Below, piece by piece: positions 38,673-40,215 of a DNA stretch of 64,000 nt. Every line of letters begins with the position of its first letter. Within the stretch, counting starts at the first letter, position 1. Source of the DNA: Enterobacteria phage T6. A program made the translations under genes and the position numbers. The notes beneath the pieces are model-generated. The model did not search any database, was not told where the DNA came from, and saw only the letters and a program-made list of their open reading frames with translations. The stretch lies in the sequence record MH550421; one strand, given 5' to 3'.

Positions 38673-39221
38673 ACCCAAGAAAACATCTACTGATCGTTGA
38701 TACCACTGCAAATCCAAATAGCCGTTACGCACATTAAACTGATAGAACATATGACAAGGCGGTAATGCCATATATTTAAGTTCAGCTGGATTCCATGCAG
38801 AAACAATTTGACGCCTATCATTTGGCAATTTTTTAATACGATCAACAACTTCTATAATTTGGTCTACACCGCCAAAATCGCGCCATTGTTTTCCATAAAT
38901 TGGACCAAGTTCACCGCTATGGTATCCTAAATCTTTTGCTTGATTTTCGTAATTTTCATCCCAGACTGTTTTGCCTTGGATTAACGAATCATGCTGAATT
39001 AATCGTAAATCATTGACATTTGTGCTTCCTGATAAAAACCATATTAGCTCAGCAATGCAAGCTTTCCAGGCGAGCTTCTTAGTTGTTACCGCAGGAAAAC
39101 CTTTAGTTAAATCCCAACGTAATTTAGTACCGAACAAAGCAATTGTTCCTGTGCCTGTTCGGTCATCGGTTTCGTAGCCATTTTCAAAAATGTCTTTAAT
39201 TAAATCTTGGTATTGTTTCAT
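38673..39221 (-). CDS. td: Thymidylate synthase, exon 1
   Basis: 183 codons MKQYQDLIKDIFENGYE...; ends at TTGGGT; in-frame TAA is the first codon of the intron. Confidence 0.9.
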
Positions 39222-39265
39222 TTAGTACCTTATATAAATTATAATACATTTTATGAAGCTAATAA

Positions 39266-39613
39266 TTAATACGGTTTAGCATCAAATTTTCTCTCAATTT
39301 CAGGAGTGAAATATAATTCTTTACCGCGTTTGGAAAAGCGACCAATAATATGATAATTATTCTCATCAAACGTAATATTACCAATATCCATAGCTTTCAA
39401 CCAAATATCGATATTTCTATCCAGCTTTATGTCAAAATTCCAATACGGAGAACTATTACCGAAAATACTGCAAGCAGATTCAGTGAAACAACTGCTATAA
39501 ATCTTGTCTTTAGGAACTACTAATTGATAGACACCTTTAATAAACTGAGGACCCTGCCATTTAGGTTGTTTCGCGTCTTTTTCTAATAGAATAGGGTAAT
39601 AATTAAAATTCAT
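39266..39613 (-). CDS. Hypothetical protein, 115 aa (119 with upstream GTG), between frd and td
   Basis: ORF with GGCGGAAAAT Shine-Dalgarno before the ATG at 39613; no recognisable motif; sits where frd and td overlap in T4. Confidence 0.55.
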   Translation of the reverse strand: MNFNYYPILLEKDAKQPKWQGPQFIKGVYQLVVPKDKIYSSCFTESACSIFGNSSPYWNFDIKLDRNIDIWLKAMDIGNITFDENNYHIIGRFSKRGKELYFTPEIERKFDAKPY

Positions 39614-39633
39614 ATTTTCCGCCACGCGTTATT

Positions 39634-40215
39634 TCATTTATATACTGATTCTGTAAGGGTTGTTACTTCATCTATTTTATACCAATGCGTTTCAACCATT
39701 TCACGCTTGCTTATATCATCAAGAAAACTTGCATCTAATTGAACCGTTGAATTAACACGATGCCTTTTAACGATGCGAGAAACAACTACTTCATCTGCAT
39801 AAGGTAATGCAGCATATAACAGAGCAGGCCCGCCAATTACACTTACTTTAGAATTCTGATCAAGCATAGTCTCGAATGATGCGTTAGGGCTTGACACTTG
39901 AATTTCGTCACTAGAAATGTAAGTTATATATTGCTCCCAAGTAATATAGAAATGTGCTAAATCGCCGTCTTTAGTTACAGGATAATCACGCGCAAGGTCA
40001 CACACCACAATATGGCTACGTCCAGGAAGTAATGTAGATAATGACTGGAACGTTTTAGCACCCATAATCATAATTGTACCTTCGGTACGAGCTTTAAAAT
40101 TCTGGAGGTCCTTTTTAACTCGTCCCCATGGTAACCCATCACCTAAACCGAATGCTAATTCATTAAAGCCTTCAACTGTTTTAGTTGGAGAATAAGCGAA
40201 TACCAATTTAATCAT
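39634..40215 (-). CDS. frd: Dihydrofolate reductase
   Basis: 193-aa [20 protein letters not shown]...LPWGR; matches T4 Frd. Confidence 0.9.

Follow-up and report, generated by a model that had tools for sequence, protein, structure and literature searches.

The small gene td.1 of phage T6 is probably an old resident of the frd-td interval of the Tevenvirinae, and the abutting frd/td junction of phage T4 the probable product of a deletion between the two copies of a 9-bp direct repeat, TAAATGAAA, that bracket td.1 in T6. What carries this reading is the place of T4 among its relatives, since its frd and td flanks nest within the diversity of phages that carry td.1, together with the great age of the td.1 boundaries and the fixed position of the td.1 family in other genera.

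The frd-td interval of T6

We analyzed a window of 64,000 nucleotides of T6 DNA (record MH550421). On the minus strand, the genes of interest run in the order frd, a 20-nt spacer, a small ORF (td.1), a 44-nt spacer and td exon 1 (Table 1). Positions 39100-39760 are 100% identical to the T6 record AP018814, in which the frd product is labelled dihydrofolate reductase, and the T6 Frd and Td exon 1 proteins share 96.9% and 98.9% amino acid identity, respectively, with those of T4. An earlier note on this DNA had placed the td start 416 bp from the end of frd with an ORF of 115-119 codons in between, and the minus-strand coordinates bear this out: measured from the ATG overlapping the frd stop, the td ATG is 416 bp away, and the ORF encodes 115 aa if read from its ATG and 119 aa if read from a GTG at 39625. 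The Shine-Dalgarno sequence that the note ascribed to this ORF is present as a weak GGCGGA purine tract 4 nt 5' of the td.1 ATG.

Table 1. Features of the frd-td region in the T6 window.
Feature	Position	Strand	Description	Source
frd (dihydrofolate reductase)	39634..40215	-	193 aa; VYK-TGA end (TAT AAA TGA)	ORF list
left repeat copy	39629..39640	-	TAAATGAAA at 39640-39632; extended, TAAATGAAAtAA	
frd-td.1 spacer	39614..39631	-	weak GGCGGA ribosome-binding tract; alternative GTG start at 39625	
td.1 (RB32ORF229c, PHROG 1928)	39266..39613	-	348-bp ORF; 115 aa from ATG, pI 8.5; predicted weakly OB-like beta-barrel	
td.1-td spacer	39225..39265	-	inner 31 nt are an indel (39231-39261, TAGCTTCATAAAATGTATTATAATTTATATA)	
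right repeat copy	39213..39224	-	TAAATGAAA at 39224-39216; extended, TAAATGAAAcAA; td start codon (39221-39219) inside	
td exon 1	38670..39221	-	frame closes at first codon of group I intron	ORF list
I-TevI homing endonuclease gene	37804..38541	-	within td intron; outside the indel	ORF list, T4 annotation

In the frd-td.1 spacer, GGCGGAAAAT aligns with GGTGAAAAGCG, found upstream of td.1 in two metagenomic relatives (L030 and L031). In the td.1-td spacer, the 31-nt segment is missing from the aligned Mosigvirus utam phages. Within this segment, GCTTCA and then TATAAT make up a possible middle-promoter-like site, and a simple sigma-70 scan of this spacer gave no match above chance. A promoter and terminator scan at both insert boundaries likewise found no signal above the shuffle expectation, so that nothing we found separates td.1 from the frd-td operon. 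The gene would be co-transcribed and translated as part of that operon.

td.1 is a recorded gene of a small family

The earlier note described the gene as unknown, which existing records contradict. The T6 GenBank record AY262134.2 calls the ORF td.1 (the protein is 100% identical to ABI48938), the RB14 record FJ839692 lists it under the name RB32ORF229c and remarks "flanked by 9 bp repeat", and a match to PHROG 1928 (phrog_1928, E = 9.5e-36, residues 8-115) gives its family. The same hypothetical protein is carried by T2, RB32, AR1 and many other Tequatroviruses. Both td.1 and its 9-bp repeat are thus already in GenBank and are not new. A long-annotated conserved gene at this site, which the earlier note had considered for T4, is indeed what T6, T2 and the RB phages carry, but T4 itself does not. 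Our search for literature on td.1 or RB32ORF229c turned up no relevant paper and no published function, and Petrov et al. 2010 do not discuss the td.1 ORF.

A td.1 profile search of 1.84 billion proteins yielded 41 representatives, 23 of them at E <=1e-10; this is a small family, found in T4-like phages only. Two long profile matches (P0030 and P0044) are Ig-like/PA14 repeat proteins and were treated as spurious. We also set aside the record labels 'glucose-1-phosphate adenylyltransferase', 'dihydrofolate reductase' and, in some BASEL-collection records, 'putative homing endonuclease' for td.1, as no domain search supports them.

The 9-bp repeat and the T4 junction

Re-reading of the sequence finds the perfect 9-bp direct repeat that the earlier note had reported around td.1, and the extended copies, TAAATGAAAtAA and TAAATGAAAcAA, match at 11/12 positions. 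Within the left copy lie the final codon and the stop of frd, as well as an orphan ATG-AAA-TAA; the note had called the latter a remnant of the td start, which at 11/12 it does resemble. As the note had stated, the frd and td genes of T4 (NC_000866) share an ATGA overlap. Removing exactly 416 bp from the T6 sequence, namely 407 bp and one copy of the repeat, gives the T4 junction. The description of the insert as bracketed by a duplicated frd/td junction is therefore accurate as a statement of the T4/T6 difference, an exact 416-bp indel.

To what extent is such a repeat unusual? The window contains 13 copies of the word TAAATGAAA where 3.7 are expected (3.5-fold), a count reached by 0 of 100 shuffles, and 5 of the 9 minus-strand copies lie at gene boundaries. 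This enrichment and placement mark it as a boundary word, made of stop, start and Lys codons, that recurs. We also surveyed the window crudely, with 90 genes called greedily: in 4 of them (4.4%) the upstream and downstream boundary windows share a direct repeat of at least 9 bp, so the td.1 repeat is real and uncommon, yet not unique. The frd codons (T AAA TGA) fix 7/9 bases of the left copy, and the td start (ATG AAA) fixes 6/9 of the right copy. By a rough estimate, the remaining matches, including the 11/12 extension, would occur by chance in ~0.1-1% of random spacers. The repeat probably reflects history, and it is the signature of no particular enzyme.

Among phages with td.1 we find two subtypes of the left boundary, set apart by a 2-nt indel within an A-run. 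T6, T2 and CM8 have TATAAATGAAATAACGCG, a Frd ending in VYK and stop, and a 9-bp repeat. RB14, BYEP02 and Mosigvirus utam have a boundary beginning TATAAAAATGAAATA and an 8-bp repeat, and their Frd is 11-12 residues longer, overlapping the td.1 start. When Frd C-terminal tails are aligned across genera, removing 9 nt from RB14 gives VYKPR, the same as in CIP9; this is suggestive, but tails this short and variable cannot bear much weight.

Three allelic states in the E. coli T-even clade

Phages of the E. coli T-even clade carry one of three alleles of the interval, all of which share the frd end TATAAATGA: td.1 only (T6, T2, RB14 and most others), ORF-B only, and empty. A td.1 gene of at least 90% amino acid identity is present in ~362 phage records, including T2, T6, RB6, RB14, RB68 and AR1, and its presence is the majority state rather than a peculiarity of T6. 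ORF-B, a 68-aa frame (MSNKLKV...), lies between frd and td at >=90% identity in ~135 records and fits flush with its neighbors, its own ATG overlapping the frd TGA and its own TAA overlapping the td ATG. The T4-type empty junction is found in 32 records only (T4 isolates, RB55, RB59, HY03, SG1 and a few others), 31 of which are identical over a 49-nt probe. In one phage, ECO07P1, the junction is empty and the 5' end of td is Dhakavirus-like; this empty junction is probably of independent origin.

An ordered gene array in other genera

Homologs of td.1, at 30-66% identity, occupy the frd-td interval of at least 6 other Tevenvirinae genera. Homologs of 30-46% identity lie directly 3' of frd in Jiaodavirus (Mineola, Metamorpho), Kanagawavirus (CIP9, Kosakonia 305), Moonvirus (CF1), Gelderlandvirus (S16), kv_tblp8 and IMG/VR contigs. 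In Roskildevirus (Cronus), the homolog adjoins td and another ORF separates it from frd. The closest homologs outside Tequatrovirus, at 63-66% identity, are on the two metagenomic T4-like contigs L030 and L031, where they too adjoin the end of frd. A full array of frd, td.1, a td.1 paralog (113-119 aa), ORF-B and td is found in CIP9, kv_tblp8 and L030, and ordered subsets of it make up the interval in the other genera as well as the three Tequatrovirus states. The frd-td position of the td.1 family is held in all of the loci examined (at least 20, from at least 7 genera). We also looked for remnants of the paralog or of ORF-B in the 44-nt td.1-td spacer of T6 and rejected the single candidate, as the sole conserved stretch overlaps the C-terminal codons of td.1; conservation there is due to td.1's own constraint and is not independent evidence.

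The sister genera are mostly empty, with the junction TATAAATGAAA (Mosigvirus APCEc01 and PNJ-6, Gaprivervirus SP18, Dhakavirus PSD2002), and Dhakavirus JS10 carries ORF-B. In Mosigvirus utam, a Tequatrovirus-like frd 3' end (87% nucleotide identity) and td.1 (88%) are joined to a native Mosigvirus td (91% identity to that of APCEc01), and the frd-td.1-td segment of utam is thus a recombinant module.

Direction of the T4/T6 difference

The earlier note read the 416-bp difference as a gain in T6. The flanking genes argue for the opposite direction. Over the 3' 500 nt of frd, T4 and T6 differ at 14 nt, while td.1-bearing phages differ among themselves at 4-32 nt. In td exon 1 (540 nt compared), the nearest neighbor of T6 is T4 (17 differences), and T6 differs from other td.1-bearing phages at 27-86 positions. 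A comparison of 130-nt flanks agrees with these distances (BYEP02 and SHFML-26 were left out of the 130-nt comparison, and IMG21 out of the 500- and 540-nt comparisons). Because the T4 flanks are nested in td.1-bearing diversity, loss in T4 is most likely, not gain in T6. In addition, the td.1 genes of T6 and utam have the same boundaries at dS = 0.88, from which it follows that the boundary architecture of td.1 is far older than the T4/T6 split in the flanks. A rare and uniform empty haplotype nested within diverse occupied haplotypes looks like a recent deletion, and we consider a recent deletion in T4 quite likely. The nesting of the flanks could itself come from frequent homologous recombination among T-even phages.

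Recombination or slippage between short direct repeats is well documented for T4, and classical studies of the T4 rII region describe spontaneous deletions between such repeats. We propose that, in a T6-like allele, recombination or slippage between the paired 9-bp copies of TAAATGAAA would produce the abutting T4 junction, one such event being enough to yield the exact T4 sequence with both flanking genes intact. All three allelic states are joined at short direct repeats that derive from the overlapping stop/start word (A)ATGA(AA). As in the rII deletions, T4 would have lost one 9-bp copy and the intervening DNA with the flanking genes spared; the difference is that the loss of td.1 is read from natural polymorphism, and its direction rests on the nesting of haplotypes.

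An alternative that we think unlikely, and still weigh seriously, is that an E. coli T-even ancestor had the ATGA overlap of frd and td, and that an L030-like td.1 segment was joined in before Tequatrovirus diversified. Illegitimate recombination or template switching would then have duplicated 9-12 nt of the junction, and the T4-type empty site would be either the retained ancestral state or a later reversal. Several observations suit such a history. The empty TATAAATGAAA junction is common to Mosigvirus, Gaprivervirus and Dhakavirus PSD2002, and this occurrence in sister genera means that a history of losses alone needs several parallel deletions, or passage of the empty allele from one genus to another. 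The left boundary equals the td start at 11/12 positions, the exception being CAA to TAA, and the roughly estimated ~0.1-1% chance of the match fits a duplication made by insertion better than it fits coincidence. Moreover, the frd-td.1 junctions of outgroups have no counterpart of the left copy, and the Tequatrovirus allele has 16-18 additional nt at the left copy relative to L030 and L031. Lastly, T6 td.1 is 63-66% identical to the td.1 of these contigs, versus 47% for Frd and 31-45% for neighboring small genes, which hints at an old horizontal transfer.

Against an insertion of this kind stand the nesting of the T4 flanks, with T4 and T6 nearest neighbors in td exon 1, the rarity and uniformity of the T4-type haplotype, and a td.1 boundary architecture that predates a dS of 0.88. 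Insertion also requires two illegitimate joins, where loss requires one deletion, and both td.1 and ORF-B would each have to land at the exact locus that they hold in outgroups. An old gain of td.1 and a recent loss in T4 can both be true, and deletion remains our preferred account of the T4 junction.

Comparison with known mobile systems

The earlier note went on to call the difference a precisely targeted insertion and its content a candidate anti-defense or toxin cargo. An actively mobile or targeted cassette, whether transposon-like or associated with a homing endonuclease, would account for the perfect 9-bp duplication of the target junction around the insert, and the I-TevI homing site ~550 bp away and the 'putative homing endonuclease' label of some BASEL-collection records point the same way. 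Nevertheless, we consider such a cassette very improbable. Searches of Pfam and NCBIfam at E values up to 1 give no nuclease, transposase or integrase domain, and there is no match at E up to 1 in PADLOC, which covers defense systems only. The 407-bp insert holds td.1 alone and lacks terminal inverted repeats; the only pairs that span its ends are 8-9-nt AT-rich words, TATATAAAT and TTTAATTA. There is no second td.1 copy in the window. Finally, the family, with its 41 representatives all in T4-like phages, is confined to the frd-td interval in every genome examined. These results show no sign of a targeting or mobility function and lend no support to an anti-defense or toxin cargo.

The target-site duplications of transposons and IS elements resemble the td.1 locus in that a perfect 9-bp direct duplication flanks the td.1 DNA and T4 has one copy, but the td.1 insert has neither transposase nor terminal inverted repeats, occurs once in the window and sits at one and the same locus in all genomes. 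Free-standing seg and mob genes share with td.1 the presence or absence of a small ORF between conserved genes near a homing site (here that of I-TevI), whereas td.1 has no GIY-YIG, HNH or other nuclease motif and encodes 115 aa with a predicted beta-barrel. A further likeness, a small ORF flanked by a repeated motif, is to the PeSL and ORFan cassettes of Arbiol et al. 2010 (PMC2839356), whose repeats could permit excision and insertion at allowed intergenic sites of T4-type phages. In the PeSL cassettes the repeated unit is an early promoter plus stem-loop, where the td.1 repeat is instead a 9-12-nt stop/start word, and td.1 differs further in lying inside a conserved nucleotide-metabolism operon with no promoter or terminator signal above chance.

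Constraint and predicted fold of Td.1

The td.1 genes of T6 and T2 differ by 11 changes, all synonymous; between T6 and utam there are 33 synonymous and 9 non-synonymous changes (dN/dS = 0.04). Across alleles dN/dS is 0.00-0.04, and td.1 is under strong purifying selection. In homologs of 27-98% identity, 12 positions are invariant, including W19 and the hairpin G91-R-F93-x-K95-R-G97. One could argue that td.1 has lost its function and is a mere relic, or that it is a frame left open by chance while the spacer decays, since it has no known domain and T4 shows no obvious defect without it. Either reading is scarcely conceivable given the low dN/dS over alleles up to dS = 0.88, the twelve residues kept across such divergent homologs and a fold predicted with moderate confidence. 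Strong purifying selection maintains the gene, and it is dispensable, because T4 lives without it.

Sequence and domain searches with Td.1 gave no match in Pfam, NCBIfam, PADLOC or PDB sequences. An AlphaFold model (pLDDT 77.8, pTM 0.74) has strands at residues 8-12, 27-34, 48-50 and 62-64, a helix at 68-76, and strands at 80-82, 86-96 and 99-104. Its best structural neighbors are nearly all OB domains, not nucleases, and lie below significance (Z <=3.8, E >=0.3); matches in BFVD are to uncharacterized T4-like phage proteins only, including the second frd-td ORF of Cronus. The predicted order of strands 1-3, helix and strands 4-5 would fit that of OB-fold domains (SSB, RPA, S1, HIN), as would the aromatic and basic residues of the conserved GRFxKRG hairpin and W19. 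Td.1 differs from these domains in having no sequence similarity to them. Tentatively, Td.1 may possibly be an OB-like barrel with nucleic acid or a protein as its binding partner, co-expressed with Frd and, in most genera, coupled to it in translation. A partner within nucleotide metabolism or replication would be a weak guess.

Discussion

The discovery of a new targeted insertion or of mobile cargo does not hold. A broader proposal, which we regard as unlikely, is that (T)AAATGA(AA) serves as a generic short recombination site for the precise loss and regain of single genes at the frd/td junction and that Td.1 is an OB-like partner of Frd and Td (dNTP-synthetase) or of nucleic acid. If this were true, the frd/td junction would be a simple, enzyme-free point of cassette exchange at which three states or more, among them td.1, ORF-B and empty, could replace one another, and Td.1 would have been overlooked because the reference phage T4 deleted td.1.

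In the composition of this interval T4 is the exception, as about two thirds of sequenced Tequatroviruses, T2 and T6 among them, carry the strongly constrained 115-aa td.1. The junction between frd and td offers a clean natural case in which short boundary repeats join three alternative alleles. For the T-even phages, td.1 is a conserved gene that escaped study since T4 is without it, and it is a reasonable, low-cost candidate for a knockout and a binding study.

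Alternative occupants of the frd/td junction

We find that the frd/td junction, occupied in T6 by the 115-aa ORF td.1, is alternatively filled in about 135 records by a 68-aa ORF (ORF-B, MSNKLKVKDVP...) that abuts frd and td flush on either side. Between Tequatrovirus and Dhakavirus JS10 the ORF-B proteins are 98.5% identical, while Frd of the same pair is only 82% identical. Homologs with approximately 43% identity are found in Phapecoctavirus-like phages. Some records label ORF-B as a "flagellar biosynthesis protein".

The junction can also be empty, as in Escherichia phage ECO07P1. 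The 5' end of td in this phage matches that of Dhakavirus PSD2002 at 94.7% identity, against only about 75% for T4/T6; therefore, the empty state is present on at least two td backgrounds within Tequatrovirus. In a further arrangement, seen in metagenomic contigs and in Kanagawavirus, Moonvirus, and Gelderlandvirus, td.1 is directly followed by a tandem paralog of 113-119 aa whose start overlaps the 3' end of td.1. The motifs Q-KKW, HG-Y-E, and GRF-KRG are common to both copies.

Coordinates of features (L-handles denote comparison loci; L030 is a metagenomic T4-like contig)
Feature	Location	Strand	Remark
td.1 paralog	L003:2317-2676
td.1 paralog	L030:4332-4673
td.1 paralog	L006:2287-2634
td.1 paralog	L016:2202-2552
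ORF-B	L009:524-730		SHFML-26
ORF-B	L013:1879-2082		JS10; ORF-B not annotated in record
ORF-B	L003:2673-2879
ORF-B	L030:4670-4879
Empty frd/td junction	L012:2680-2760		ECO07P1
Duplicated frd 3' end	L032:340-540		BYEP02
Indel segment TAGCTTCATAAAATGTATTATAATTTATATA	window 39231-39261	minus	upstream of td
64-aa ORF	window 62823-63018	minus	bracketed by 12-bp direct repeat TAAATAAGGGCT
685-aa gene	window 15594-17652	minus	bracketed by 10-bp direct repeat TTACAAGTTC

The naming of td.1 is inconsistent between public records. Domain searches support none of the labels "putative homing endonuclease" (BASEL phages), "putative glucose-1-phosphate adenylyltransferase" (BW-1 and pSe_SNUABM_01), or "dihydrofolate reductase" (several records).

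Mosaic and possibly rearranged frd-td regions

In Escherichia phage BYEP02, 81 bp of the frd 3' end are tandemly duplicated; the first copy has an end of the T6 or ORF-B type, TATAAATGA, and the second an end of the RB14 type, TATAAAAATGAAATACC. Either recombination between two junction alleles or an assembly artifact could account for this duplication. The frd-td region is mosaic in the Mosigvirus utam phages Shf125875 and OLB35 (L033 and L034), which combine a Tequatrovirus-like frd 3' end (87% nucleotide identity) and td.1 (88%) with a native Mosigvirus td (91% identity to APCEc01 versus 79% to T6). A fusion-like protein from NCBI (P0012, 195 aa) joins an unrelated 155-aa N-terminal part to the last ~40 residues of the Jiaodavirus-type Td.1 (NGNVMVKDDVVSIIGRFEKRGDQLFFTPLQEKFNA), and may point to a further rearrangement of this region.

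The utam phages also lack the inner 31-32 nt of the td.1-td spacer. In T6 this segment contains GCTTCA followed 10 nt on by TATAAT, which we take to resemble the T4 arrangement of a MotA box plus -10 element; a generic sigma-70 scan made no call at this site.

Lastly, two further genes in the window, encoding 64 and 685 aa, have direct repeats common to their two boundary windows that are longer than the 9-bp td.1 repeat. We propose the boundaries of these genes as candidates for further indel-prone sites.
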